From UHGV virus genome UHGV-1378516: 64,000 bases of DNA. The stretch is one strand, 5' to 3'. A model generated the notes under the pieces. It did not search any database, was not told the origin of the DNA, and saw only the letters and a list, made by a program, of their open reading frames with translations. A program made the translations under genes and the position numbers. Positions 653 to 39,460 of this stretch are shown in pieces (the first letter of the stretch is position 1; the number at the start of each line of letters is the position of its first letter). The DNA comes from a virus.

Positions 653-877
653 TATGTTTTCTCCAAATAGTTAACCATGTTTCCCCTTAAAAAAGACGGC
701 ACAGAGACCGTCAAGGAGAAACCACAATGTACGTCAGAGACATACTGTATAAGTCTTCCTATAAAGTATAACTCTGTAAAAAAGCCCTGTCTAAAAATAC
801 TCTTCGGTAGCGAAAGGAAGAATACTTATAGCAGGGCATTATTATTATTTTAATTGAGAGAGAGTAAAATAACTTGG

Positions 878-950
878 AGAATCCGAAGGGACTCGAACCC
901 TTATAAACCTGTTTTGCAGACAGGCACATAGCCATTTCTGTCACGGATTC
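878..950 (-). tRNA. tRNA-Cys (anticodon GCA)
   Basis: Perfect 7-bp acceptor stem GAATCCG/CGGATTC, T-arm GGGTTCGAGTCCC, anticodon loop CTGCAAA. Confidence 0.7.
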
Positions 951-954
951 AAAT

Positions 955-1047
955 TGGAGGAAGATACCAGACTTGAACTGGTACACCGATTTCTCAGCTA
1001 CTGGCAGTTTAGCAAACTGCTCCCTTACCTTTTAGGGTTAATCTTCC
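955..1047 (-). tRNA. tRNA-Ser (anticodon GCT), type II, CCA encoded
   Basis: Acceptor GGAAGAT/ATCTTCC, T-arm ACCAGTTCAAGTCTGGT, anticodon stem GCAGT/ACTGC with loop TTGCTAA, long variable arm. Confidence 0.6.
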
Positions 1048-1049
1048 AT

Positions 1050-1784
1050 TTATTTCTGTAATACGTTCTTCATTTCTGGTGTTGCAATAGTGTCAATTAC
1101 ACCAGTTTTACAAGCATCATCAAACCAGTCTGGTAAGATACCTGCTAAGAACCCATTGATATTCGTTTTAAGGTACTCTGCAATAAGAGCAGCTTCTTCT
1201 TCAATCATCTGCACAACTTCATCTGCATAAGCTGTAATTTTTGAAATACCTTCATTAATCTTACTAACAGCTTGGTTAGCTAAATCAGAAATAGTATCAA
1301 GACCTTTGTCAATAGCGTCTTGTAAGTCACTTAATACATCATTAACACCGTCTAGTGCACTGTTAATCGTATCAATAGCTTTTTGACCATACTCTGTAGC
1401 AACACCCATAATACCACTAAATGGTGTACAACCAACTTGTTCACCTGCTGCACCCATAACATTAGAATAGCCTTTTGCTACCTGCATACGTGATGAGAAC
1501 TCATCAATGGACTTTTGACCGTAATCTGTCAGTGTTTTGGTAGTTGATGTAGTGCTTGTCAGACTCGTGGTAAAGCTGTTAAGCAGAACTGTTGTGAGTC
1601 CAGCAGCAACAAGCTTATCCTTTACTGTAGGGTCTGATACAGAGCTAATAGAGCTTACAAGTGATGTAGAGGCAGCTACGGTTCCGCCGAGAACTGCTGC
1701 ACCAGTAATAAGGGGGTTAGAAAACCCTTTACCAGTTTTTAAGAGATTGAAAATCTCCTTACCTTGTTCTGTCATCTCTTTCAT
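1050..1784 (-). CDS. hypothetical Ala/Thr/Ser-rich protein (start moved to internal ATG so it does not overlap tRNA-Phe)
   Basis: ORF 1050-1847 in track; ATG at 1782-1784 with AAAGGTG RBS; upstream 20 codons overlap a tRNA. Confidence 0.5.
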   Translation of the reverse strand: MKEMTEQGKEIFNLLKTGKGFSNPLITGAAVLGGTVAASTSLVSSISSVSDPTVKDKLVAAGLTTVLLNSFTTSLTSTTSTTKTLTDYGQKSIDEFSSRMQVAKGYSNVMGAAGEQVGCTPFSGIMGVATEYGQKAIDTINSALDGVNDVLSDLQDAIDKGLDTISDLANQAVSKINEGISKITAYADEVVQMIEEEAALIAEYLKTNINGFLAGILPDWFDDACKTGVIDTIATPEMKNVLQK

Positions 1785-1802
1785 TAAGCACCTTTGAAAT
1801 TG

Positions 1803-1877
1803 GTAGTCCAGTGGGATTTGAACCCTCTTCTCATGTTTTTCAGACACGCGCTTTAACCATATAAGCTACTTGGACTA
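1803..1877 (-). tRNA. tRNA-Phe (anticodon GAA)
   Basis: Acceptor TAGTCCA/TGGACTA, T-loop TTCAAAT, anticodon loop CTGAAAA. Confidence 0.65.
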
Positions 1878-1885
1878 TAAATTGG

Positions 1886-1958
1886 GGTGACCTACGGGAT
1901 TTGAACCCGTATAGACCATGTTCACAGCATGGGTCATTACCATTTATGATAAGGCCAC
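1886..1958 (-). tRNA. tRNA-His (anticodon GTG)
   Basis: Acceptor GTGGCCT/AGGTCAC, T-arm ACGGGTTCAAATCCCGT, anticodon stem CCATG/CATGG loop CTGTGAA. Confidence 0.7.
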
Positions 1959-1992
1959 ATTTAAGGACTCTCGTAAGAATCCTTAGAAGTGG

Positions 1993-2065
1993 CAGCGGCA
2001 TAAGGATTTGAACCTTAATAGGACAGCTTCAGAGACTGTTGCATTGCCAGTTATGCTATACCGCT
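1993..2065 (-). tRNA. tRNA-Gln (anticodon CTG)
   Basis: Acceptor AGCGGTA/TGCCGCT, T-arm TAAGGTTCAAATCCTTA, anticodon loop CTCTGAA. Confidence 0.6.
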
Positions 2066-2072
2066 AAATTTG

Positions 2073-2142
2073 GTACTCCATATCGGATTCGAACCGATAC
2101 ATAACACAGATTTTAAGTCTGGCCTCTCTGCCAATTGGAGTA
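2073..2142 (-). tRNA. tRNA-like gene, short (about 68-70 nt), anticodon loop CTTAAAA (UAA, nominally Leu); non-canonical D-arm
   Basis: T-arm ATCGGTTCGAATCCGAT and acceptor pairing present; D-arm does not fold canonically. Confidence 0.4.
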
Positions 2143-2154
2143 ATGGAGCATTGG

Positions 2155-2227
2155 CGGGGGATGTTGGAATTGAACCAACTTCTTCGATTTCAAAGACCGA
2201 GGTTTTAACCTTGTAAACTAATCCCCT
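2155..2227 (-). tRNA. tRNA-Gln (anticodon TTG)
   Basis: T-arm GTTGGTTCAATTCCAAC, acceptor AGGGGAT/ATCCCCC (1-72 mismatch), anticodon loop CTTTGAA. Confidence 0.55.
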
Positions 2228-2235
2228 TTAAATCT

Positions 2236-2793
2236 TTACTTTCTTAGTGGATGAATAAAGAATGCCAACATAACTCTTTCCCTTGAGAATGCTCTTTCTT
2301 CTGGGACAACGCTTTTAAGTTTCCACCCAACATAAATTCTCCAGTAAAATTGTTTACCAAAGATTTTGATTGATGGCACAAAAGCGAATAACCCCCAAGC
2401 ATTACTGTTCCACATTAGGAGATAACCAGTTTGATTATCTTCAGGGTTAGAACTTACGTTGATATTACCTTTCCACTTAGTAACGTCTTTTACATCTCTT
2501 CCTAACACATGGTAAGAGAAGTTATAAGCTTTGTTTCTCCAGAGCCATCCAACTCTCTGCATGTAGACACCAAGCTTACCAATCTTTCTAATCTTAGCCC
2601 ATCGTTTGATATGACCTGCATCACCATCAATTGGGTTGTCATAAGTCTCCATCCATCTGAACCCGAAAGGCAAGTGTCCTTTCTTCTCACTGTAGAATGG
2701 AACTACAAAAGGTGCTAAGATAACTGCTAAGATTGCTGCAAATGGCTCTAACAAAGCTAAGAAAATCCATGAAGCATACTTTAAGTATCTCAT
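2236..2793 (-). CDS. hypothetical membrane protein embedded in tRNA cluster
   Basis: ORF track 185 aa; hydrophobic N-terminus IFLALLEPFAAILAVILAPFVVPF. Confidence 0.5.
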   Translation of the reverse strand: MRYLKYASWIFLALLEPFAAILAVILAPFVVPFYSEKKGHLPFGFRWMETYDNPIDGDAGHIKRWAKIRKIGKLGVYMQRVGWLWRNKAYNFSYHVLGRDVKDVTKWKGNINVSSNPEDNQTGYLLMWNSNAWGLFAFVPSIKIFGKQFYWRIYVGWKLKSVVPEERAFSRERVMLAFFIHPLRK

Positions 2794-3032
2794 TGTCTAA
2801 TCCTCGTAAGGAGGTAAATGTTATTATTAGTTTCTAAACCTTCTGGTAAAACTGTCTCAAAAATAACACTCTTCAGATGTCTACCACCAAAACAATCACG
2901 TATAAATCTTTCTACTCTAGCGGGGTCACATAAGTATCCCACTTTTAAGAAAATGTGGTGTTCAACACCAATGACCCTGACAAACTCAATACTCTCACAG
3001 TTTTCATGTTCAACTACTGTTAATGTTTGCAT
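2790..3032 (-). CDS. hypothetical protein (80 aa)
   Basis: ORF track; 4-nt overlap with downstream gene suggests translational coupling. Confidence 0.4.
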   Translation of the reverse strand: MQTLTVVEHENCESIEFVRVIGVEHHIFLKVGYLCDPARVERFIRDCFGGRHLKSVIFETVLPEGLETNNNIYLLTRIRQ

Positions 3033-3052
3033 AGTATCACCTTTTTATCTGG

Positions 3053-3125
3053 CGCAGGATAAGGGATTCGAACCCCTATTAACAGCTTCGTAGACTGTTG
3101 CTCTTTCCATTTGAACTAATCCTGC
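3053..3125 (-). tRNA. tRNA-Arg (anticodon ACG)
   Basis: Perfect acceptor GCAGGAT/ATCCTGC, T-loop TTCGAAT, anticodon loop CTACGAA. Confidence 0.7.
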
Positions 3126-3133
3126 AAAATTGG

Positions 3134-3208
3134 TGTTCCAAGACGGATTCGAACCGTCACTAATACAAGGTTTGAGCTTGCATCCTCTGCCAATTGGGAT
3201 ACTGGAAC
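3134..3208 (-). tRNA. tRNA with anticodon CAA (nominally Leu) but short type-I architecture
   Basis: Acceptor GTTCCAG/TTGGAAC, T-arm GACGGTTCGAATCCGTC, anticodon loop CTCAAAC, discriminator A; no long variable arm. Confidence 0.5.
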
Positions 3209-3212
3209 ATGG

Positions 3213-3284
3213 TACTCACTAAAGGACTTGAACCTTTTTCTTCATCTTGTAAGGGTGATGTTTTACCATATAAACTAAGCGAGT
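3213..3284 (-). tRNA. tRNA-Val (anticodon TAC)
   Basis: Acceptor ACTCGCT/AGTGAGT (one GU), T-arm AAAGGTTCAAGTCCTTT, anticodon loop CTTACAA. Confidence 0.55.
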
Positions 3285-3288
3285 ATGA

Positions 3289-3376
3289 AAGAGGTCTGGA
3301 GTTGTGCCGCTAACTCAACTCCGTGGAATTTGTTACGGTCTTCAGTTGACTCAAAGCGGTCTTTCACTTGACCTCT
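3289..3376 (-). ncRNA. tRNA-sized structured RNA candidate without canonical T-loop
   Basis: 7-bp terminal pairing AGAGGTC/GACCTCT spaced 88 nt apart, internal 7-bp hairpin GGAGTTG...CAACTCC; no TTCRANT T-loop. Confidence 0.25.
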
Positions 3377-3383
3377 GAATTGG

Positions 3384-3456
3384 TGCTCCCACAAGGACTC
3401 GAACCCTGATAAGTTGCTTACAAGGCAACCGTAATAACCAATTATACGATAGGAGC
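3384..3456 (-). tRNA. tRNA-Thr (anticodon TGT)
   Basis: Acceptor GCTCCTA/TGGGAGC, T-arm CAGGGTTCGAGTCCTTG, anticodon stem GTTGC/GCAAC loop CTTGTAA. Confidence 0.65.
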
Positions 3457-3466
3457 ATTAATTTGG

Positions 3467-3538
3467 AGCATCCAGAGGGAATCGAACCCTCAACCTCAGT
3501 TTGGAAGACTGTAATTTTCCCGTTTAAACTATGGATGC
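3467..3538 (-). tRNA. tRNA-Gly (anticodon TCC)
   Basis: Perfect acceptor GCATCCA/TGGATGC, T-arm GAGGGTTCGATTCCCTC, anticodon loop CTTCCAA. Confidence 0.65.
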
Positions 3539-3547
3539 ACTAATTGG

Positions 3548-3620
3548 TGGAGTCACCGAGAATTGAACTCGGTTCCCAAGTTTGCAAAACTCGAATTTTA
3601 ACCATATAAACTATGACCCC
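3548..3620 (-). tRNA. tRNA-Ala (anticodon TGC)
   Basis: Acceptor GGGGTCA/TGACTCC with G3-U70, T-arm CCGAGTTCAATTCTCGG, anticodon loop TTTGCAA. Confidence 0.7.
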
Positions 3621-3629
3621 AATGTCTGG

Positions 3630-3702
3630 TACAGGTGGAGGGAATTGAACCCATCGTCTTACTGATTAAGAGTCAGCCGCATAACCATTTTGCTACACCT
3701 GC
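3630..3702 (-). tRNA. tRNA-Lys (anticodon CTT)
   Basis: Acceptor GCAGGTG/CACCTGT, T-loop TTCAATT, anticodon stem GCTGA/TCAGT loop CTCTTAA. Confidence 0.55.
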
Positions 3703-3712
3703 ATTAATTTGG

Positions 3713-3788
3713 TAGGAGACAAGGGATTCGAACCCTCAAGCATCTCGTTCTAAGCGAGATAGGTCTACCAAGTTGCCGTCAATCTCCC
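3713..3788 (-). tRNA. tRNA with anticodon TAG (nominally Leu), type-I length
   Basis: Acceptor GGGAGAT/GTCTCCT (two GU), T-arm GAGGGTTCGAATCCCTT, perfectly palindromic anticodon arm ATCTCG-CTTAGAA-CGAGAT. Confidence 0.5.
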
Positions 3789-4044
3789 ATTAAATCTTTT
3801 TAGAGAACTTCTAAGAACCTGAGCAACAAGGTTCCACAACAAGCGACTAATAACCTTAGAAGCCCTCTAAAAAGACCTAAATAGGTCTTTGCATAGTCTT
3901 GTTTAATCCGGTGACTAGAACCTTTGGAGAGCTTGATATTATCTCTTCTCCGTGACACCTACTAGGTGCTTTGACAGTGTACGACAATACACGAGGGATA
4001 AACCGACAATGCGAACAAGCATGGACGGAGTAAATCTTATTAGG

Positions 4045-4132
4045 CGGTAAGTAAAGGAGTCGAACCCTCACCGTATCTCTACAGTGGCAACAGTTTTCAA
4101 GACTGTTTGGCTGCCATTAGCCGCTACCTACC
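4045..4132 (-). tRNA. tRNA-Ser (anticodon TGA), type II
   Basis: Acceptor GGTAGGT/ACTTACC, T-loop TTCGACT, anticodon stem ACAGT/ACTGT loop CTTGAAA, long variable arm. Confidence 0.6.
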
Positions 4133-4148
4133 CCTAATAAGACTTTGG

Positions 4149-4228
4149 CATGGGACGGAGGAGTTGAACCCCTTTGAAACGGTTTTGGAGGCCGTTGCTC
4201 ATGCCTTAGAGTCTTAACATCGTCCCAT
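4149..4228 (-). tRNA. tRNA-like gene (80 nt), anticodon undetermined (possible 9-nt loop containing CCA)
   Basis: Perfect acceptor ATGGGAC/GTCCCAT and T-arm AGGGGTTCAACTCCTCC; interior does not fold into canonical D/anticodon arms. Confidence 0.4.
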
Positions 4229-4373
4229 ATTATAATTCGAAGCTTACCCTGTTATCTCAACACTGTCAAGCTTCTTCTCAGATTATTTACATGTTCTGGA
4301 AAACATGAGATACAGACCACCTCCCTACAGGAAGACCCGCTAAGGCCGTCTAAGTAATCTGCTAACTATTTGG

Positions 4374-4447
4374 TACACCCTACAGGATTCGAACCTGTAA
4401 CTAACGATTTAGAAGACCGTTGCTCTATCCAATTGAACTAAGGGTGC
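4374..4447 (-). tRNA. tRNA-Arg (anticodon TCT)
   Basis: Acceptor GCACCCT/AGGGTGT, D-arm GTTCAATTGGATAGAGC, T-loop TTCGAAT, anticodon loop CTTCTAA. Confidence 0.65.
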
Positions 4448-4696
4448 ATTATCTTTAAAGACTCTCTTAGAAAGCCCTTAAAGATGCCCACCTTATTAAT
4501 CATACCGTGGGCGAGTACGCCAAATTCTTTGATGAGGGATTGGAAGACCTCACTGGTGTTTAGCCTATCAAGCTACTGCCAGAAAAACATTGTCGTTTGC
4601 ATTTATTTTAAATTTGCAAAATAGACGCTACGCAACGAAAACTAAGGTTACTATAAAGTAGTCACATCTCAATGTCAACAACTTTATTGAAATTGG

Positions 4697-4769
4697 TACT
4701 GGTAGGTGGAATCGAACCACCGATGTTCCCTTATCAGGGGAGTGTTATAACCTTCTTAACTATACCAGC
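4697..4769 (-). tRNA. tRNA-Ile (anticodon GAT)
   Basis: Acceptor GCTGGTA/TACCAGT, T-arm GGTGGTTCGATTCCACC, anticodon loop CTGATAA. Confidence 0.65.
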
Positions 4770-4773
4770 TTGG

Positions 4774-4847
4774 AGGTTCAGATGGGAATCGAACCCACAT
4801 TCATAGGGCTTATGAGACCCTTGCATTACCTTATCTGCGACTGAACC
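4774..4847 (-). tRNA. tRNA-Met (anticodon CAT; initiator-like GGG/CCC in anticodon stem)
   Basis: Perfect acceptor GGTTCAG/CTGAACC, T-loop TTCGATT, anticodon stem AGGGT/GCCCT loop CTCATAA. Confidence 0.6.
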
Positions 4848-4854
4848 ATATTGG

Positions 4855-4927
4855 TAGAAGTGGAGGGATTCGAACCCATCGCCTGTCAGATTAAAAGTCT
4901 GCCGCATCACCATTCTGCTACACTTCC
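4855..4927 (-). tRNA. tRNA-Lys (anticodon TTT)
   Basis: Acceptor GGAAGTG/CACTTCT, T-loop TTCGAAT, anticodon loop CTTTTAA. Confidence 0.6.
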
Positions 4928-5126
4928 ATTAAATTATCTTTGTAGATAAGCTACCCAGACTTGCTTAAGGTCTGTAGCGATGTGCCTTTTGGGTTTAAAT
5001 CTAGAATTTACCCATTCACCCTTTGTGGTCGCATACTCACAGGTAAGCTTAATAACTTATCTACAAAGATAATTACCAGACCGTTGTTTATCATCTTAAG
5101 TGCTACCATTACACCAACTCGACATC

Positions 5127-5172
5127 TGCCGAGTGAAGGAATCGAACCTTCGCCTTTTCTTTACCGGAGAAA
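5127..5172 (-). pseudogene. tRNA remnant: 3' half (T-arm + acceptor 3' strand) plus an anticodon-arm-like hairpin (loop CCGGTAA), no matching 5' acceptor strand
   Basis: T-arm GAAGGTTCGATTCCTTC present; no complementary 5' acceptor strand within 100 nt. Confidence 0.3.
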
Positions 5173-5358
5173 TAGATTGTTTAAGTTTTGCTGTAAACGG
5201 TCTTCTGTAAATTTGTTGAGCCAGACCAAGTTTTAAATTTTCAAAATTAAATTGGCTTGAAATTTCATACGTTCTTGCTGTATTTGGTCTTCTGCTCCTT
5301 TAAAGAATACTCGTAAGAACTCTTTAAGGGAGGGGCTAAATAGCCCTCTCAAAATTGG

Positions 5359-5433
5359 CGGTTACGAAGGGATTTGAACCCTCATCATCTCCCGTGACAG
5401 GGGAGTATTTTAACCAGATTAAACTACATAACC
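5359..5433 (-). tRNA. tRNA-Asp (anticodon GTC)
   Basis: Acceptor GGTTATG/CGTAACC, T-loop TTCAAAT, anticodon stem CTCCC/GGGAG loop CTGTCAC. Confidence 0.65.
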
Positions 5434-5441
5434 TTTATTGG

Positions 5442-5526
5442 TGTGCCGTGTAGGAGTCGAACCTACCGAGTCTCAATGACAAGGGATTTACAGTCCCCAC
5501 CGCTACCATCTACGGGATAACGACAC
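5442..5526 (-). tRNA. tRNA-Tyr (anticodon GTA), type II
   Basis: Acceptor GTGTCGT/ACGGCAC, T-arm GTAGGTTCGACTCCTAC, anticodon loop CTGTAAA, long variable arm. Confidence 0.6.
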
Positions 5527-5598
5527 ATTTAATTTCTATTCAGGCTAAGGACTTGCACCTTACAAATCGGTGAGCAATCGCTTCTCTCCTAAATTTGG

Positions 5599-5672
5599 CG
5601 GTTAGTCAGGGATTCGAACCCTGTGCCATTCGCTTAACAGGCGACCGCACATACCTTATGTGCTTCCTAACC
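5599..5672 (-). tRNA. tRNA-Asn (anticodon GTT)
   Basis: T-arm CAGGGTTCGAATCCCTG, acceptor GGTTAGG/ACTAACC, anticodon loop CTGTTAA. Confidence 0.6.
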
Positions 5673-5759
5673 ATGTTTAGTATTACCAGACCGTATCTTT
5701 CAATTTTTTCCGCTAAAAATTTAATAAATATTGCTGTAAACGGTCTTCTGTAAATTTGG

Positions 5760-5833
5760 AGGCGGGTGCAGGAGTCGAACCTGCCGATACCATGCTAATG
5801 AGACATGTGAGACGCCCTTTCTCTATACCCGCA
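5760..5833 (-). tRNA. tRNA-Met (anticodon CAT), 1-72 mismatch
   Basis: T-arm GCAGGTTCGACTCCTGC, acceptor TGCGGGT/ACCCGCC, anticodon stem CATGT/GCATG loop CTCATTA. Confidence 0.55.
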
Positions 5834-5927
5834 ATTCTTAATGACCAGACCAAATCTCTTCTTTGTCCGATTTACCTTCAGATGAATAAGATTAAGTTTG
5901 CTGTAATTGGTCTTCTGTCAAAACTGG

Positions 5928-6002
5928 CGTTCCAGAAGGGATTTGAACCCTCAAATATCCACTTTGAAAGAGTGGTGACTTTACCATTTTGTCTACTGGA
6001 AC
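5928..6002 (-). tRNA. tRNA-Glu (anticodon TTC)
   Basis: Perfect acceptor GTTCCAG/CTGGAAC, T-loop TTCAAAT, anticodon stem CCACT/AGTGG loop CTTTCAA. Confidence 0.65.
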
Positions 6003-6012
6003 ATTAATTTGG

Positions 6013-6086
6013 TCTCTGTTGGAGGACTTGAACCTCCGGCCTTACCGCCCCAAACGGAACGCTCTACCAAGCTGAGCTAAACAGAG
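6013..6086 (-). tRNA. tRNA-Pro (anticodon TGG)
   Basis: Perfect acceptor CTCTGTT/AACAGAG, canonical D-arm GCTCAGCTTGGTAGAGC, T-arm GGAGGTTCAAGTCCTCC, anticodon loop TTTGGGG. Confidence 0.65.
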
Positions 6087-23152: not shown

Positions 23153-23938
23153 TTAGTTCTTTGCGTCTAAGAAGGTAACTTCTGGCGAAGAGAAAACTGT
23201 CTCAATATCCTCATCAGTTCTTGCATAGATGTAAGTGTCTGCATCACTGCCAAATGTTACTGCAATCCTGTGATTGCTCTTCGACAGGTGGGTAACTAGA
23301 GCGTTACTTAGAGACATCTTTTCAACCGGAGGGTTACTTTGATGTATCTTACCTTTTCTTCGTCTGAAGAGGGTAACTGCATTATCCGTGAACACAACTA
23401 CACCTGCGAAGTATTCTGGTTCACAGTAGTTCTTCCAACCTGAGCGTAACTTGTGGTACATCTCTCCTTCATAGACATATAGATAAACATCTACACTCTT
23501 CATTGCCTGATTGATGATAACTGTGACGGCTTGAGGGTCCAACCCACCGATACCTGCACCAATCATAGGTAAACCAACTTTCTTCAACTGATTAACTTCA
23601 CAGTATCTGTTAAGCTGTTTCAAAGATGACTCTAAAGCACTGTATCGGGCATCTTTACCAGTCTTAAGCTGAGTGTAAAGGTTAGCTATACGGCCTTGTT
23701 TTACACGTGCTACAGAGAAATTACCCAGTAAATTTTCACAGGGTTTGTGTCCTATACCACCTGCATATAGATAAACTTCTGTATCGGTCTCATATGCTTT
23801 TGGGTAAAGTTTAGAAATCTTGTCAGCGATACCTGCACCCATTAAATTCATACAGTTGCAACCGTGACCGATGATGTCAAACTTACCTTTATCAAATGCG
23901 GAAAAGATATCACCGTTGATAATTTTTACAATACCCAT
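23153..23938 (-). CDS. macro-domain-like protein (putative ADP-ribose binding/processing) with C-terminal extension
   Basis: N-terminal GDIF...DIIGHGCNCMNLMGAGIA and later VGLPMIGAGIGGLD resemble the GDIT...VNAAN...GGGV and ...FPAISTGVYGYP elements of macro domains (by-eye alignment to E. coli YmdB). Confidence 0.45.
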   Translation of the reverse strand: MGIVKIINGDIFSAFDKGKFDIIGHGCNCMNLMGAGIADKISKLYPKAYETDTEVYLYAGGIGHKPCENLLGNFSVARVKQGRIANLYTQLKTGKDARYSALESSLKQLNRYCEVNQLKKVGLPMIGAGIGGLDPQAVTVIINQAMKSVDVYLYVYEGEMYHKLRSGWKNYCEPEYFAGVVVFTDNAVTLFRRRKGKIHQSNPPVEKMSLSNALVTHLSKSNHRIAVTFGSDADTYIYARTDEDIETVFSSPEVTFLDAKN

Positions 23939-31368: not shown

Positions 31369-31383
31369 AATTTTCTCCAGAAA

Positions 31384-31421: not shown

Positions 31422-33203
31422 TTAAAGTTGCTTGTCAATATTATTTCGAATATCACCAAGAGTTGTGTAGCCGAACTGCTCAGAGTCGCTAAAGACTAAA
31501 CGTAAAGCACAAGCTGGATGCTCAAGTGCATCTGCAAAACTCTGGAATCCATAGCCATCTACAGCTTTCAGGTTCTCACCATCCCACATAGGGGCTACAC
31601 CACCAAAAGCAGACTTCTTAATACCACTGTCTGTTTTAGGGTCTTTTGCAAGCATAATCTCTTTACCACCAATACTTGCAAGAGTTGCTTTGACAGCAAA
31701 TGCAAAGGTGTCACGAGTCATGTACTGGTAAGTGTAAGAACCTACACCAAACACTACGTTAGAGCTTGCAAAACCCATTTCATACAAACGCTTCAGGATT
31801 TCGTTTGCACGTTCCAACGTGATAGAGTCACCATAGATAAGGCCAATGTGCTCATCCAGTACCTTAAACCCTTTAGAGTTGATAGTTCCTCCAAAGATGT
31901 TATACAGTGTCTTGATAGCTCCATCAATCTCCGCTACAGGACGTGTTACAACGTTTGCAGAACCAACCATATAAGCATTTTTCAACATCACTGTATCAGC
32001 AACTTCAAAGTCTTCTCTGTCAACAACCATTTCGTAACCTTCTGACAGTAGCCATCCAGCAATACCATAATTGATGTTTTCAAGCTTCATGTTCAGAACA
32101 GCATTCAGCATTGTGTCGCTGGCTTCCAGCTTACTTAGGTGTTCGTAATAAGCCTTTTTAGCACACTCTAAATGGATTGCTTTGTATCCTGTGACAATAT
32201 GTACAGGGTCTCCAGAATCAGGACGAATTACCAGTTTGCCATCACGTTCCATAATCTCTTTACGGAGTTCTGGCAATATGACTGATACAGTTCTCCAGAA
32301 GTTATAAGTATCTGAAACAACACTTGCAATACCAGTTGGGTAAGTTTCTGTTAAGAAACGACGGAAGGTTTGTAACTCACCTTTAAAGCGTCTTTCTTCT
32401 TCAATCAACTCGTTACCACCTTCCCAAGCAATGTTTGCACACATTACAGAATGTTCAGTGGCTGGTACAGAACTACCAATATCAGAGATTTGGTAGGACT
32501 GTCCATAGATGCGTTTAGCTGTATACACAGCAGGGAAGCTATCAGTCCCTTTAAAGCTTGTTAAGTGACCTACAGCGTTAAATGCGTCATCAGTAAAGCC
32601 GGACATACCACGCATAGCAAAATCATGGCACTGATAAGGTAAATGTAAGTCATTGTCACAAGTAAGGTCAGCCCACTTCTTACAGATGCGTTTGTAATGC
32701 AATGCAATAGTTGCAATGGTGCAAGCCTTCCAAATTTCAGCAGAGAAAGCATCTTCCAGATAACCTGCTACCCAATGAAAACCTGAAACAGTGTTCTGAA
32801 AGACAATCATCGGGACACGCATTGGAACAACTGTGCCTTCTTCTACAGCGTATACTTCAACTGGTAGATAACCTAAGTCGTGAAGTGCTTCCCAATGCTC
32901 TCGACCGATAGCATCTTTACCCAGAACACCATTCATGACTTCTAAGATTTCATCAATGGCTTCTTTTTTATCACGTTCAAAGAAAGTGGCATTCCAGTGG
33001 TCTATCAAGTAATCTTTAACAAAACGTTGAATACCAAAAGCCACTACACCGTCAATTGCTAAAGGGCTGTTAAACCATTTATCACTACGTGGTGTTAGGT
33101 TGAACATCAAGTACTCTGTTGCGCTAGGATACTGGTAAACATGACCAGATTTGTAAGCATCTGCATTTAAACCTGCTGGTACTGCATAAAGTGATTTAGT
33201 CAT
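31422..33203 (-). CDS. NAMPT-family phosphoribosyltransferase; best interpreted as Namat (nicotinamide ADP-ribose transferase) of NARP1
   Basis: 593-aa ORF; N-terminus MTKSLYAVPAGLNADAYKSGHVYQYP typical of NAMPT/NadV family; adjacent Prs-family gene. Confidence 0.7.
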   Translation of the reverse strand: MTKSLYAVPAGLNADAYKSGHVYQYPSATEYLMFNLTPRSDKWFNSPLAIDGVVAFGIQRFVKDYLIDHWNATFFERDKKEAIDEILEVMNGVLGKDAIGREHWEALHDLGYLPVEVYAVEEGTVVPMRVPMIVFQNTVSGFHWVAGYLEDAFSAEIWKACTIATIALHYKRICKKWADLTCDNDLHLPYQCHDFAMRGMSGFTDDAFNAVGHLTSFKGTDSFPAVYTAKRIYGQSYQISDIGSSVPATEHSVMCANIAWEGGNELIEEERRFKGELQTFRRFLTETYPTGIASVVSDTYNFWRTVSVILPELRKEIMERDGKLVIRPDSGDPVHIVTGYKAIHLECAKKAYYEHLSKLEASDTMLNAVLNMKLENINYGIAGWLLSEGYEMVVDREDFEVADTVMLKNAYMVGSANVVTRPVAEIDGAIKTLYNIFGGTINSKGFKVLDEHIGLIYGDSITLERANEILKRLYEMGFASSNVVFGVGSYTYQYMTRDTFAFAVKATLASIGGKEIMLAKDPKTDSGIKKSAFGGVAPMWDGENLKAVDGYGFQSFADALEHPACALRLVFSDSEQFGYTTLGDIRNNIDKQL

Positions 33204-33248
33204 CTTTTAATCTCTCTCAAAATGGGGCTTGGAAGCCCCTATAAAGTT

Positions 33249-34145
33249 TTAATCAAGGTTTGCTACAGTAACTTGGCTATAATGTGTTAAGCCACGGTCT
33301 TTAGCTTCCCCTAAAGAGTTTGTAGTGTAGATATGGTCAATGCCATTGTCAAGCAAGTTTTCAACATCTTTAGAGAAGATACCATGTGTTACATAGAGTT
33401 CCACACGTTTTGCACCTGCTTCACGAAGATGCTTAGCTGCTTCTATGAAGGTTCGACCACCATCACAGATATCATCCAGAATCATGACGGTTTTATCTGT
33501 CAAATCAACATCATCAAGGATTCGCATACCAGTAATTTCACCAGTCTTAAGGTTACGCACCTTAGACATTGTGATATATGGTTTATCCACCTCTTTAGCG
33601 GTCTCTGCAACCTTCTTAGCAGCACCTGCATCTGGGGCTACTAAGTAATCAACCAGTGGGTCATTTGCATAGTGGACTGCAATTTCCTTTTGAGGAATAC
33701 TCTGGAAGCAGTTAAACAGGTTATCTGGAACGTAACTGTGAGGGTCAACTGCACAGACTGCACCAAATCCCATTGCATTTACCTGTTTAGCAAAAACCTT
33801 CAAAGCTGCTGCGTCGCCTTTAAACATGTGACGGTCATAACGTGCATTTGGTAAGTAGTAAAAGATGACAGTCTTTAAAGCATAATCATGAGGAATTAAA
33901 TCATCAATTGCTTCTTTAGCAAGTGCCACAGCAAACAATGTATCCTTATCATAACCTTTTACAATCATAATCACATTGTTTATGGATGATGCTGCATAAG
34001 CAGTGAAATCAACAAACTCTGGCGAAAAGTGTCCACCAATCTCACCAGAAGGAAATTGGATGATGTTAAACTCCTCTTCATGAGTTCCTTTAGTTGGTGA
34101 ATGAACTGTAACACGGATAGATGTTTTCATAGTTTTCTCTCTCAA
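33249..34145 (-). CDS. Prs-family (ribose-phosphate pyrophosphokinase-like) enzyme; best interpreted as Adps (ADP-ribose pyrophosphate synthetase) of NARP1
   Basis: PRPP-synthetase signatures YYLPNARYDRHMF and VMILDDICDGGRTF...VTHGIFS; no HxGH nucleotidyltransferase motif (so not NMNAT). Confidence 0.7.
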   Translation of the reverse strand: MREKTMKTSIRVTVHSPTKGTHEEEFNIIQFPSGEIGGHFSPEFVDFTAYAASSINNVIMIVKGYDKDTLFAVALAKEAIDDLIPHDYALKTVIFYYLPNARYDRHMFKGDAAALKVFAKQVNAMGFGAVCAVDPHSYVPDNLFNCFQSIPQKEIAVHYANDPLVDYLVAPDAGAAKKVAETAKEVDKPYITMSKVRNLKTGEITGMRILDDVDLTDKTVMILDDICDGGRTFIEAAKHLREAGAKRVELYVTHGIFSKDVENLLDNGIDHIYTTNSLGEAKDRGLTHYSQVTVANLD

Positions 34146-34420
34146 TCAAAAGTTACGTTTGTTACTGCCATTGCAGATTTGCATTTTGCAGGGTCTACAA
34201 CGTGATAAAGTACACTACAGTTACCTGTGCTGTCTGGTACAGGTTTAACCCATTGTTGCTTGACAGTTGGTTCGCCTAAGTCTTTGTAAGAACCATCTGT
34301 AAAGTTGTTTACCATCTCAAGTGCGATTGGCTCTGGAACATGACCACGTATCATGTACATTTCACAACCATTGCCTCCTTCACTGACTAATGGTAAAATC
34401 TCCCACTTTTCTTTAGCCAT
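34142..34420 (-). CDS. hypothetical protein (92 aa) co-transcribed downstream of Prs-family gene
   Basis: ORF track; 4-nt overlap with upstream gene. Confidence 0.45.
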   Translation of the reverse strand: MAKEKWEILPLVSEGGNGCEMYMIRGHVPEPIALEMVNNFTDGSYKDLGEPTVKQQWVKPVPDSTGNCSVLYHVVDPAKCKSAMAVTNVTFD

Positions 34421-34928
34421 TATAAGTTGCCCTATAAACTATCTCGAACTTCAACAGGAGAGATATTGCCAAATCTGTATAGTTGTTGTCAAGCACATCT
34501 GGCATATTATTTTTGATATATCTCTCTTGCTCTTCATAGGTCATCTTAGGGGCACTTAAAAGGCTATCTCCTTGCTTCTGGTTATCAGCTTTAGTCTGAA
34601 TAAACCAGTTTGCACAGTGATGTTCACCACCTTTTGTAACAGGTTTGTGGTGGCCTAATGTGAAGGATTGACTGCCTGTGTATCTGCAAAGTTTATTGAG
34701 TACTGTAATGGTGTTCTTCACAACAAAACATTCATACAGGTTGTCTATGGTGTAGTGTGGATAATATCGAAATAATGCTCTTTCACGAGTACTCTCACGA
34801 TTCCAGAGAATCATGTGATTGGAGTTGGAAGGGTCGTATTGGTGGGAGTCAATGAACTCTTGACGTTCCTCAAAACTGAGTCTTAACACTGACATTGCAG
34901 CAGAACGTTTCAGATTTGACAGATACAT
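34413..34928 (-). CDS. HNH homing-endonuclease-like protein
   Basis: HNH-type motif LGHHKPVTKGGEHHCANW. Confidence 0.5.
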   Translation of the reverse strand: MYLSNLKRSAAMSVLRLSFEERQEFIDSHQYDPSNSNHMILWNRESTRERALFRYYPHYTIDNLYECFVVKNTITVLNKLCRYTGSQSFTLGHHKPVTKGGEHHCANWFIQTKADNQKQGDSLLSAPKMTYEEQERYIKNNMPDVLDNNYTDLAISLLLKFEIVYRATYNG

Positions 34929-34979
34929 ATTATCTCCAAAATAAAAAGGGAACCTTTACAGTTCCCTTATAGTATCTGC

Positions 34980-35665: not shown

Positions 35666-36166
35666 TCACTCTGCTCTCCACTGACAATCACCTTGCCACC
35701 CATACTCTTTTCTCCAGAGGTTTTGGTTATCAGAACCACGATATGGTTTAACTGTTGGTTTAGATGAATCATACTTACCATCAATCACCACGTCAACATA
35801 TTTCATCACATCAAGGTGAATTTTTTCATGTAACTGAAAACCTGTCCAGAGCCAGATAGATTTCTCTGGATAGATTGATTTAACCTTCTGACAAATCTTA
35901 GTGACTTCTCCAATGTTACGGTCATCCAATGGTTCTCCACCGAGGATAGACAGCCCACTTAAAGAGTCATCTTCCAAAAGTCTTAGAATGCCATAAAGGT
36001 TTGCATAAGTGAACTCTTTACCAGCATTAAACTTCCAAGACTCCCTGTTAAAGCAACCTTCACAGTGATGTTTGCAGCCAGCTACGAAGAGACTTACACG
36101 GACCCCTTCACCATTAGCTGTGTCAAATGGCCTAATCTCCATGTAATTCATTAGTTTAACCTCCAA
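35666..36166 (-). CDS. nrdG: anaerobic ribonucleotide reductase activating protein (radical SAM)
   Basis: CxxxCxxC cluster GCKHHCEGCFN; size 166 aa; adjacent to nrdD. Confidence 0.8.
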   Translation of the reverse strand: MEVKLMNYMEIRPFDTANGEGVRVSLFVAGCKHHCEGCFNRESWKFNAGKEFTYANLYGILRLLEDDSLSGLSILGGEPLDDRNIGEVTKICQKVKSIYPEKSIWLWTGFQLHEKIHLDVMKYVDVVIDGKYDSSKPTVKPYRGSDNQNLWRKEYGWQGDCQWRAE

Positions 36167-36273
36167 ATCAAAGGGTTTGGTAATCCAATTACTGACGCTA
36201 CTAATGTATATACAAATGCCACCATTAAGAAAATGACAAACGCACCTATAACCCTATACATTCACAAATTACC

Positions 36274-36573
36274 TCACCAATACATATAGACGTTCTTTGC
36301 AGCTTTCTTTGGAGACTTGCTATCAATGTCAAAGTCTTCATCTAAGAAGGATGTCTTAGAAAGCTGTCTTATTTGTGTTCTTGTAATACGTTTAGTAGCC
36401 TTCTTAATCTCTCTACAAGGTTGACTTGTAAAGTCATAAGAGCCACCTTTTCTGGACATCATATCAGAATGGAAGTAGATATCTGAAGCGTTCTCTCTGT
36501 TACGCGCTTCATTTCTCCACTCATAGAATCCGTGAACGTTCTTTAAACCTTTTCTTCGAATTGTTTTACTCAT
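36274..36573 (-). CDS. hypothetical protein (99 aa)
   Basis: ORF track. Confidence 0.45.
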   Translation of the reverse strand: MSKTIRRKGLKNVHGFYEWRNEARNRENASDIYFHSDMMSRKGGSYDFTSQPCREIKKATKRITRTQIRQLSKTSFLDEDFDIDSKSPKKAAKNVYMYW

Positions 36574-37315: not shown

Positions 37316-39460
37316 TTACATAGAAACTCTGTCACGAATCTCAGCGATTTTTGCATCGTTCATTCGGGATTCACCTTTAATCTTAGTCCATCCAAGATAC
37401 CCACACACTCTGTTAATCACAGAGATATCATGTGAGTGACAAACTTCACACTCTTCAACATCTGATTTTGGTCTGTTACCACAATGCTCACAGATTGCTA
37501 AGTCAAAGTTAAGTCCCTGATAGAAACCTTTCAACATACCTCTGGTAATACAACTTTTAAGTGCTGATAAGTTTTCTGGGTTAGCTACTCTTACATACTG
37601 GATTCTACCGCCTCTACAGATATGGAAGTATGGCTCTTCTAAGTCCTGCTTCTCAAATGGCGAGATGTCTGCTGCAACATTCATATGGAAACTGTTTGTA
37701 AAGTATTCCTTATCGGAAACACCTTTGATAACCCCAAACATATCTCTGAACTGTTTTAGCTGAGTCCCACATAGTGATTCTGCTGGAGTACCATAGACGG
37801 CATATAAGAAGCCATCTTCATTTTTAAACTCTTCGGTTTTCATGTTGATGTATGCCAGAACATCATATGCAAAACTATAGCTTCCAACTTCATGAAGTCG
37901 TTTACCTTCAGCAAGAACAGACAACTCATCAAGCGCAGTAACACCAAAAGAAGCTGTGAAGGACTTCACAATATCCCAACCAACCTTGTCAGTAGGTTTC
38001 TTAGTTCCTTTGTACAGACCACCTTGTGTGAATGCAAGAGGGTTAGAACTTGCTGGCATATTAGCAATCATTTCGTAGCGTTTCTTATGGAAACTACGAA
38101 TCATCTCTAGGTACTTATCAAGCTCTTTCCAGAAATCTAAACCATTCTCTTTAGAATACTGGTAAATCATTGGTAAGTTCAAAGATACAGCACCAATGTT
38201 AGCACGACCAACGTAGAACTCTTCTCCACCCTCATTAAGATATGGAGATAAGAAAGCTCTACAACCCATCGGTGAAATTACCTTACCAGAACGCTCAAAA
38301 GCCTCTGCTACAGCACCATGACCAGACACACTTAAGAAATCTGGGTACATTGCTTTAGAGCAACACTCAATAGCTTTACTGTACAGGTGACCTTGACAGA
38401 TATTTTCATCATGTCTCTTCTGGTCATAAATATAAACCAGTTTAGGGAATACAACAGGTTTTTTGCTCTTGCCTTGTCCATTCATACGAACATCTAGGAG
38501 AGTACTTGCAATCATGTATTGTAGTCGATTATCCTCATTAGACATATCTGAGTCAAGTAAACCAAATGTTAAAGTTGTGAATGCAAAATCACCACGGCTA
38601 CAAGGTACGGTATTTAGTTTCATCTCAAGTGACTGAAAACCTTGAGTCAGTTCAATTTGTAACTGCTCCATTACATAATTGTGGTAATGCTCTTTAGGAA
38701 TACCATAAGATGATGCTTTCTCAGCATGATAGCGTAGAGACTTCTTAGCATACGGTACAAGTACCTTATCAATCTCTGCTAAAGTAAAACCACCAAATTG
38801 CTGTGCAGTTGCTGAAAGTACTACGTCACCAATAACCTGCAACGCTGACAGTACAGATTTAGGTTCACAGTACTCAATGCCGGACATTTCAAAGCCACCT
38901 TTTAGTACTTTACCAATGTCAAACAGGCAACAGTTAATACCACCAAAAATCAGGTCTCTCAAATCGTGGATATAGATAAAGCCTTTCTCAATGGCTTCAA
39001 GTTCCTCTGGTGTTAGATGATACTGTTTAAAGATTTCTTTAGTCAGGTAACCACGGATAATTGAACCTTTCGTAGAAATTAAACTGCTGTCAAAGTTAGC
39101 ATTTTCACGGTCACCTAAGAAGAGTGTGTCTCTAGTCTTTTGGTAAAGTTCATCCCAATTTTGAGCAACCTCTTTACGGTAATTTCTGTATGTTGAGTAA
39201 GACTCGTAAATCTCGTGATTAACTTCTGCCAAAGCACCCTCAACAATACTGTGAATATCATTTACTGAAATGAGCAAATTATTCTGCTTAGTGGACTTTA
39301 CCAGAATCCTCATGAATGCTGACTCAAGAGCTTGGGTAACATCTGGTGGCAGTTCTTTATATCCAACCCTGTTAGCTGACTTTGTTACTGCCGCTAAAAC
39401 TTTTTTGATATCAGGTTCTTCAAGTGAGCCATTCTTTTTAATAATCTGTACTTTGTTCAT
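37316..39460 (-). CDS. nrdD: anaerobic ribonucleoside-triphosphate reductase (class III)
   Basis: 714 aa; C-terminal glycyl-radical region RVCGYLGWTKIKGESRMNDAKIAEIRDR and Cys-rich zinc ribbon CEHCGNRPKSDVEECEVCHS. Confidence 0.85.
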   Translation of the reverse strand: MNKVQIIKKNGSLEEPDIKKVLAAVTKSANRVGYKELPPDVTQALESAFMRILVKSTKQNNLLISVNDIHSIVEGALAEVNHEIYESYSTYRNYRKEVAQNWDELYQKTRDTLFLGDRENANFDSSLISTKGSIIRGYLTKEIFKQYHLTPEELEAIEKGFIYIHDLRDLIFGGINCCLFDIGKVLKGGFEMSGIEYCEPKSVLSALQVIGDVVLSATAQQFGGFTLAEIDKVLVPYAKKSLRYHAEKASSYGIPKEHYHNYVMEQLQIELTQGFQSLEMKLNTVPCSRGDFAFTTLTFGLLDSDMSNEDNRLQYMIASTLLDVRMNGQGKSKKPVVFPKLVYIYDQKRHDENICQGHLYSKAIECCSKAMYPDFLSVSGHGAVAEAFERSGKVISPMGCRAFLSPYLNEGGEEFYVGRANIGAVSLNLPMIYQYSKENGLDFWKELDKYLEMIRSFHKKRYEMIANMPASSNPLAFTQGGLYKGTKKPTDKVGWDIVKSFTASFGVTALDELSVLAEGKRLHEVGSYSFAYDVLAYINMKTEEFKNEDGFLYAVYGTPAESLCGTQLKQFRDMFGVIKGVSDKEYFTNSFHMNVAADISPFEKQDLEEPYFHICRGGRIQYVRVANPENLSALKSCITRGMLKGFYQGLNFDLAICEHCGNRPKSDVEECEVCHSHDISVINRVCGYLGWTKIKGESRMNDAKIAEIRDRVSM

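Follow-up and report, generated by a model that had tools for sequence, protein, structure and literature searches.

NAD+ reconstitution pathway 1 (NARP1) was first found in Bas63 (JohannRWettstein), a BASEL phage and Felixounavirus (MZ501086), and was published in 2024 together with a catalogue of 859 phage genomes that carry it (Osterman et al. 2024, bioRxiv 10.1101/2024.02.11.579819). Its two enzymes, Adps and Namat, are encoded close to each other: in 97% of the Adps clade a Namat neighbour was found within 10 genes of adps (10.1101/2024.02.11.579819). With the enzymes of the Bacillus phage SPbetaL1 it was shown that ADP-ribose (ADPR) and ATP yield ADPR-PP, and that ADPR-PP and nicotinamide yield NAD+ (10.1101/2024.02.11.579819). 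When genes 79-80 were deleted, Bas63 became about 20-fold more sensitive to SIR2-HerA, NAD+ depletion was deeper, and the new metabolite ADPR-PP, which had been detected in Bas63-infected cells, was abolished; the effect was independent of the host genes pncC or nadR (10.1101/2024.02.11.579819). NARP1 overcame type I Thoeris, DSR1, DSR2, SIR2-HerA and SEFIR, and was ineffective against type II Thoeris, a system that causes no NAD+ depletion (10.1101/2024.02.11.579819). It is likewise ineffective against aRES, which leaves a 1''-phosphate on ADPR. The counter-defence phenotype has been reported for Bas63, FADO and heterologous hosts. Here we describe a pair of genes in a 64,000-nucleotide (nt) stretch of the virus genome UHGV-1378516 (the whole stretch is called the window below), which very probably (roughly 0.9) constitutes a NARP1 operon.

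The pathway acts on the products of many defence systems (SIR2-HerA/Nezha, type I Thoeris, DSR1/2, SEFIR and others), which cleave NAD+ to ADP-ribose and nicotinamide. Adps, a diverged ribose-phosphate pyrophosphokinase, transfers pyrophosphate from ATP to ADP-ribose at its free ribose C1'', giving ADPR-PP. Namat, a diverged Nampt whose narrowed pocket entrance clamps the adenine, joins ADPR-PP and nicotinamide directly to NAD+, without the host nicotinamide mononucleotide (NMN) adenylyltransferase. Restoration of the NAD+ pool would then allow the phage to escape abortive infection.

The pair belongs to a block of four minus-strand open reading frames (ORFs), which are transcribed in the order 171-aa gene, 92-aa gene, adps, namat (aa, amino acids; Table 1). 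A first-pass annotation, made from the letters of the sequence, had recognized the last two as adjacent, co-oriented genes for a 298-aa Prs-family protein and a 593-aa NAMPT-family protein, and had proposed that they represent NARP1. Both ORFs were found where it had placed them, the 298-aa one at 34145-33249 if counted from a TTG, with 45 nt between the adps stop codon and the namat start, and the proposal was borne out by comparison with Bas63. The gene order in Bas63 is the same as in the window, 0077 (171 aa), 0078 (92 aa), 0079 (Adps) and 0080 (Namat, 593 aa), with rIIA further on, and the two genomes are collinear with ~90-97% nucleotide identity. The encoded proteins are identical at 580 of 593 positions in Namat (98%), 229 of 293 in Adps (78%), 91 of 92 in the 92-aa protein (99%) and 164 of 171 in the 171-aa protein (96%). 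On account of the collinearity and these identities the window pair is orthologous to the founding example of NARP1; the finding is therefore an already known one, a Felix O1-type phage copy of a published two-enzyme pathway. The assignment is based on orthology to the tested Bas63 operon, on retention of the published catalytic and specificity determinants, and on the likeness of the predicted structure to the Namat crystal. By analogy, the Adps allele and the Namat of the window would have the same activities as the tested enzymes, and orthology suggests that the pair would also confer the counter-defence phenotype.

A megablast search with the 3-kilobase (kb) region returned 257 phage records, nearly all of them Escherichia, Salmonella, Shigella and Citrobacter phages of the Felix O1-like kind, with Escherichia phage fjerdesal as the top match (97.6%). 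The surroundings of the pair in the window (rIIA, NrdD/NrdG, NrdA/B, thymidylate synthase, DHFR and 26 tRNA genes) agree with the Felix O1-like assignment, and the sequence as a whole identifies the window as Felixounavirus DNA collinear with Bas63. The tRNA genes are clustered at 875-6086 on the minus strand, as is usual in Felix O1-like phages.

Profile searches placed both proteins in the expected families. For Adps, matches were obtained with Pfam Pribosyltran (8e-12) and Pribosyl_synth (4.3e-10), with TIGR01251 (124.5 bits, cut-off 113), with PHROG 619 (8.7e-97) and with Prs chains in the PDB (down to 2.9e-18). The motifs NARYDR, DDICDGGRTF and THGIFS, noticed already in the first-pass annotation, are present, as is DPHS, whereas HxGH was found in neither protein of the pair. 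The catalytic lysine is K190 (in the numbering of the 293-aa form), equivalent to K162 of SPbetaL1 Adps and K197 of B. subtilis Prs. The protein scored below all NCBIfam Prs equivalog cut-offs, short by ~190 bits or more: the best equivalog, PRK00934, gave 104.8 bits against a cut-off of 296, another gave 92 against 297, and the others, with cut-offs of 438-536, gave 40.9-64.4 bits. Of SPbetaL1 Adps (100 bits, 36% identity) and E. coli Prs (62 bits, 29% over 195 aa), the former is the closer to the window Adps. It has the strings PDAGAAK and K-x-RN-x-x-TGEI in common with the SPbetaL1 enzyme, and differs from E. coli Prs (b1207) in the ribose-5-phosphate loop, which reads CDGGRT instead of DTGGT, and in the KRR region, which is altered to K-V-R-N...TGEI. 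These scores, together with the identity to Bas63 Adps in conserved synteny, place the protein in the phage Adps clade, apart from cellular Prs.

Namat matched the Pfam models NAPRTase (2.2e-34) and NAMPT_N; it also matched PRK09198 of NCBIfam (468.5 bits, cut-off 405) and, among the PHROGs, number 448 (5e-202). All residues of the catalytic core are conserved (D15, Y17, F195, R198, D221, H251, R327 and D329, corresponding to D13, Y15, F189, R192, D215, the catalytic His, R306 and D308 of SPbetaL1 Namat). Among the published residues contacting nicotinamide or NAD+, 16 of 20 are identical in the window protein, and so is the catalytic His (H251); the four that differ are S190A, A362S, F392Y and R40, which is replaced by K42-W43. 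The K-W arrangement in place of R40 has been described for Bas63 (PMC12774641), and the whole SCL loop S40-D41-K42-W43 is identical to that of Bas63. In the clamp loop the stacking residue is either an Arg at position 3 or the residue following a Lys/Tyr, so that with Lys at SCL position 3 it is the next (fourth) residue that stacks (PMC12774641). The SCH signature GSxPhixPhixPhiTRD appears in the window Namat as G488-S-Y-T-Y-Q-Y-M-T-R-D498 (GSYTYQYMTRD), where positions 3 and 7 are aromatic (Y490 and Y494), so that the two adenine-stacking aromatics are present; Phi3 is Met, where Asn or Val is usual, and this too is identical in Bas63.

An AlphaFold2 model of Namat built with 51 homologues (pLDDT 93.5, pTM 0.91) was compared with solved structures by Foldseek. 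The best matches were the SPbetaL1 Namat crystals 9w5x and 9w5w (E 3e-53 to 6e-50, target-normalised TM 0.93-0.95), which ranked before H. ducreyi NadV (HdNadV) and mammalian NAMPT; the crystal structures were described in NAR 2026 (9W5X, 9W5W; PMC12774641). In a sequence and structure DETERMINANTS, the SPbetaL1 operon was retrieved and aligned to the window proteins. The two genes have the same order in both phages, the proteins are 47% (Namat) and 33% (Adps) identical in the alignment, and the catalytic Lys of Adps, the catalytic core of Namat and the SCH clamp motif are common to both. The predicted fold of the window Namat superposes on SPbetaL1 Namat at a target TM of 0.95. The differences are a longer SCL loop with K-W replacing R40 and two insertions in the window protein, ~14 residues at 258-279 and ~88 residues at 340-427.

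The larger of these inserts was found only in long forms of the Ounavirinae type (254 phage records, with homologues down to ~42% identity); a compact alpha/beta domain is predicted for it, with a pLDDT of 93-97 in the context of the whole protein and a pLDDT of 85 and pTM of 0.75 when modelled alone. No structural relative was found in the PDB or BFVD, and neither NARP1 paper mentions the insert. Across the family the length at the insertion site varies from 16 to 94 residues, and the insert evolves about twice as fast as the remaining protein. An intein or other mobile origin was considered and rejected: the insert was not found outside Namat, it diverges with its host protein, and different family members have different lengths at the site. 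The insert may have a function of its own, for example in docking Adps to pass on the labile ADPR-PP or in evading a host inhibitor; the SPbetaL1 Namat, in which it is absent, forms no stable complex with Adps.

In Klebsiella, Cronobacter, Kosakonia, Phytobacter and Kluyvera, chromosomally encoded homologues of ~496 aa with 40-48% identity to the window Namat are abundant, a single cluster comprising 1,229 members; these proteins could be bacterial Namat (NARP1-like) or ordinary NadV.

The names under which the matching records are deposited, 'ribose-phosphate pyrophosphokinase' and 'nicotinamide phosphoribosyltransferase', would suit a different function, classical salvage, in which the Prs-like protein makes phosphoribosyl pyrophosphate (PRPP) from ribose-5-phosphate, the NAMPT-like protein makes NMN from PRPP and nicotinamide, and the host NadR or PncC completes NAD+. 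Folds and core catalytic residues are as in cellular Prs (E. coli Prs) and Nampt/NadV (human NAMPT, Haemophilus ducreyi NadV). In favour of salvage, the TIGR01251 and PRK09198 cut-offs are passed, and SPbetaL1 Namat makes NMN from PRPP at about half the rate of human Nampt (PMC12774641). However, Bas63 overcame SIR2-HerA in a pncC nadR double-deletion host, SPbetaL1 Adps gave no detected product in the Prs-substrate control (the substrate being ribose-5-phosphate according to the legend and PRPP according to the running text), and Namat offered both substrates yielded NAD+ only (10.1101/2024.02.11.579819). The shortfall of Adps against every Prs equivalog cut-off argues in the same direction, as does the adenine clamp of the window Namat, whose aromatic SCH residues are reported as absent from Nampt (PMC12774641). 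Taking these data together, the chance that the pair serves classical salvage is very slight. Smaller still, indeed negligible, is the chance of a pathway of the NARP2 type, in which a phage Nampt and a phage NMN adenylyltransferase make NAD+ from PRPP without ADPR. A NAMPT-family protein by itself fits either pathway, and the window represents 64 kb of a ~88-kb genome, so that ~24 kb lie outside it. Nevertheless, when 66 of the 75 window ORFs of at least 90 aa and one 88-aa ORF were scanned for NMN adenylyltransferase, Nudix and RyR domains, no protein with PF01467, a Nudix domain or HxGH was found among them, and the annotation of Bas63 shows no Nmnat within the 47 kb visible. Moreover, the window Namat has Adps as its partner and hardly differs from the Bas63 Namat, which is likewise associated with Adps, whereas the Nampts of NARP2 form a separate clade (10.1101/2024.02.11.579819). 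The NARP2 alternative is thus effectively refuted. An RyR/R12-domain glycosidase, as in the RyDEP-extended form of NARP1, was likewise not found among the same scanned ORFs.

Several points weigh against the NARP1 assignment. The chemistry rests on the SPbetaL1 enzymes; Bas63 Adps 'did not purify well' (10.1101/2024.02.11.579819), and because Bas63 carries the other N-terminal allele of Adps (see below), the closest tested orthologue differs in half of this protein. The Adps structure is reported as unresolved (PMC12774641), and among the papers searched none dealt with the structure of Adps or with Felixounavirus-specific features of NARP1. The clade placement of Adps was derived from pairwise scores, cut-offs and synteny. 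Finally, since SPbetaL1 Namat keeps PRPP-to-NMN activity in vitro (PMC12774641), some classical salvage could be possible.

The difference between the window and Bas63 Adps is confined to one part of the gene. Nucleotide identity falls to 64-76% only at window positions 34100-33640, the first ~450 nt of adps; the first ~180 residues of the protein are ~65% identical to Bas63 Adps and the C-terminal ~113 aa are ~97% identical. When the N-terminal 180 residues were used as a tblastn query, the matches fell into two modes: 156 records reached at least 90% identity, 97 lay at 60-80%, and the range of 80-90% was empty. By this distribution, Ounavirinae have two discrete alleles of the N-terminal half of Adps, the window carrying the majority allele and Bas63 the other one. 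Both alleles share the catalytic motifs, and the flanking genes and the C-terminal half remain 94-99% identical.

The flanks of adps are variable slots. In Escherichia phage ASO1B a free-standing HNH_3 homing-endonuclease gene (163 aa, PF13392, 8.7e-20; 2450-2941 of the stretch examined) lies between Adps and Namat and splits the NARP1 pair, at a place corresponding to the window spacer 33204-33248; according to its annotation, Felix O1 also has an HNH_3 homing-endonuclease gene between Adps and Namat. The window spacer holds a small GC-rich hairpin and is without the HNH_3 gene. This hairpin was not called as a terminator, and its stability is modest (z -2.0).

On the other side of adps, the 92-aa gene had been taken in the first-pass annotation for a downstream, translationally coupled gene and a possible accessory component, with an HNH endonuclease gene immediately beyond. 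Minus-strand transcription, however, puts both the 92-aa gene and the adjoining 171-aa gene upstream of the pair. The 4-nt overlap between the 92-aa gene and adps exists only if the TTG at 34145 is used, which gives the 298-aa form. The ATG at 34130, 15 nt past the TTG, is preceded by GAGAGAGAAAACT, the same ribosome-binding-site string GAGAGAGA precedes the Namat ATG, and this ATG is the start annotated in Bas63; it gives a 293-aa Adps and leaves an 11-nt gap to the 92-aa gene. Translational coupling to Adps is therefore probably not the case. The 92-aa gene overlaps the 171-aa gene by 8 nt (ATGGCTAA).

Whether NARP1 is a three-gene system with the 92-aa protein as accessory component, or a four-gene system that includes the 171-aa protein as well, was weighed separately. 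The 171-aa, 92-aa, adps and namat genes stand together between two terminator-like hairpins, the 92-aa gene is 99% conserved with Bas63, and published NARP1 operons sometimes hold accessory genes (Macro-domain Adpp, RyR-domain RyDEP). The gene is, however, confined to Ounavirinae (231 phage records), and its protein formed 13 clusters among 5.8 billion proteins, several of them truncated, with 58-80-aa forms in metagenomic contigs. In Escherichia phage JH2 (5210-5760 of the stretch examined) it is precisely deleted, while the 171-aa gene, Adps and Namat are kept; the JH2 171-aa gene is 95% identical, extended to 177 aa, and abuts Adps. In Mordin the 92-aa gene is ~1 kb from Adps. It was outside the Bas63 deletion that defined the phenotype, and SPbetaL1 NARP1 works as two genes (10.1101/2024.02.11.579819). 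The protein had no Pfam, NCBIfam or PDB match and no Macro or RyR domain. Because of its restriction to Ounavirinae, its deletion in JH2, its position outside the Bas63 deletion and the lack of a recognizable domain, the 92-aa protein is unlikely to be a component of NARP1, and an enlarged operon of this kind is highly improbable. As to the 171-aa gene, the ORF noted as an HNH endonuclease does adjoin the block, but the label is weak: no Pfam HNH match was found even at E<=1, and what speaks for it is a PHROG HNH match at 1.4e-4 and the HNH-like string HHKPVTKGGEHHCANW. PDB matches of the 171-aa protein to protein A were discarded as summed repeat artefacts.

The positions of the features are listed in Table 1. 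The number of terminators in the region was not above that in shuffled sequences (3 seen, 3.3 expected), and the operon boundaries therefore rest on position and on the independent annotation of ASO1B, which has a terminator at the position matching 34946-34968 and a promoter at the place matching the namat 3' end.

Table 1. Location of the adps-namat pair and of associated features in the window
Feature	Position	Strand	Basis
adps, putative ADP-ribose pyrophosphokinase (Prs-family)	33249..34130	-	family profiles, identity to Bas63_0079, ribosome-binding site and start codon
namat, putative nicotinamide ADP-ribose transferase (NAMPT-family), 593 aa	31422..33203	-	profiles, identity to Bas63_0080, AlphaFold2 and Foldseek
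Inserted alpha/beta subdomain of Namat (residues ~340-427)	31923..32186	-	absent from SPbetaL1 Namat and Nampt
GC-rich hairpin of the 45-nt Adps-Namat spacer, GGGGCUUCCAAGCCCC with AUUUUG after it	33224..33239	-	dG -13.7 kcal/mol, z -2.0
92-aa ORFan immediately upstream of adps	34142..34420	-	99% identical to Bas63_0078
171-aa protein (PHROG 3500), weak HNH-like motif; first gene past the terminator-like hairpin	34413..34928	-	
Intrinsic-terminator-like hairpin and T-run ending the preceding gene; 5' boundary of the 171aa-92aa-adps-namat block	34946..34968	-	
Intrinsic-terminator-like hairpin, 12 nt past the namat stop codon	31387..31410	-	terminator scan
Promoter-like site TTGACA-16-TATGAT (11/12), overlapping the namat 3' end	31438-31411	-	promoter scan
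Macro-domain protein of 261 aa, distal to the pair; Bas63 orthologue: Bas63_0095, annotated 'putative phosphatase'	23153..23938	-	PF01661

Bas63 differs from the window in an extra 345-nt gene (bas63_0081) directly past Namat (window position 31375), which the window does not have. There is also a ~740-nt insertion in the Bas63 nrdD (window position 38264), where the annotated two-piece coding sequence contains a homing endonuclease, probably within an intron, and the nrdG region (window 35885-36330) is a further locally divergent patch.

In Vibrio phages Gary and Wyman an extended form of the pathway, NARP1-AP, has been described, which consists of Adps, the Macro-domain protein Adpp and Namat (Osterman et al. 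2026, bioRxiv 10.64898/2026.01.28.702374). Adpp is a NARP1-associated ADPR-1''-phosphate phosphatase; Gary Adpp has been validated, H24 being the one catalytic residue that was mutated (10.64898/2026.01.28.702374). In Wyman, gp178 lies between Adps and Namat, which is the published layout of Gary NARP1-AP. No Macro domain was found in the nine neighbouring genes of the window pair that were scanned, so within two genes on either side the pair is not a NARP1-AP. The only Macro protein is encoded 7.5 kb downstream on the same strand (PF01661, 32 bits, cut-off 22); going by the numbering of Bas63, 14 genes separate it from namat. PHROG 335 ('phosphatase') takes in both this protein and Wyman gp178 (29% identity, E 4e-14), and the window protein aligns end to end with Gary Adpp (30% identity), the macro-domain motifs being kept and H24 corresponding to H25. 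It differs in a C-terminal extension of ~100 aa, which is unexplained, and in the location of its gene outside the operon.

These observations allow the suggestion that the Macro protein may be linked to NARP1 as part of a dispersed NARP1-AP, in which it would turn the aRES product ADPR-1''-phosphate into ADPR and thereby feed Adps and Namat. A dispersed layout would have escaped the published survey, which took in no more than two genes on either side of NARP1; its table is without Escherichia or Salmonella phages (10.64898/2026.01.28.702374). aRES occurs in E. coli, Klebsiella and Enterobacter, including hosts of Felix O1-like phages. On the other hand, Tk.4, a member of the same family, is widespread in T-even phages, where it stands beside vs and tk and not beside a Prs-like gene, hence membership in PHROG 335 does not imply a role in NARP1. 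The window Macro protein resembles Tk.4 (36%) slightly more than it does Adpp (30%), and its best solved relatives are de-ADP-ribosylases of the OARD1/TARG1 type, the match to Poa1p being marginal. The distance from Namat and the C-terminal extension also speak against a joint function, and co-occurrence inside one phage subfamily is not independent evidence. On balance a dispersed NARP1-AP is possible but rather doubtful. As for the two less conventional features of the locus, the proposition that Felix O1-like phages have a dispersed NARP1-AP and/or that the Namat insert domain has a functional role must be considered unlikely.

Among the database matches, two records named 'Campylobacter phage A132/A126' (MG065664 and MG065668) and another named 'Staphylococcus' have NARP1 regions 93-98% identical to those of E. 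coli and Salmonella Felixounaviruses. Judging by this identity, the entries probably bear wrong labels or are contaminated.

The pathway was recognisable from the raw sequence. By the NARP1 assignment the public names 'ribose-phosphate pyrophosphokinase' and 'nicotinamide phosphoribosyltransferase' are misleading in more than 250 Felix O1-like phage records. For phage therapy and for the prediction of host range it means that the phage likely resists defences that deplete NAD+, SIR2-HerA, DSR and type I Thoeris among them. Structure-function work on Adps could start from the Namat insert domain and from the two N-terminal alleles of Adps. Felix O1-like phages would resist aRES too if the Macro protein and NARP1 work together, and, if a dispersed NARP1-AP is real, the share of NARP1 phages that counter aRES (reported as 15%) would be underestimated.

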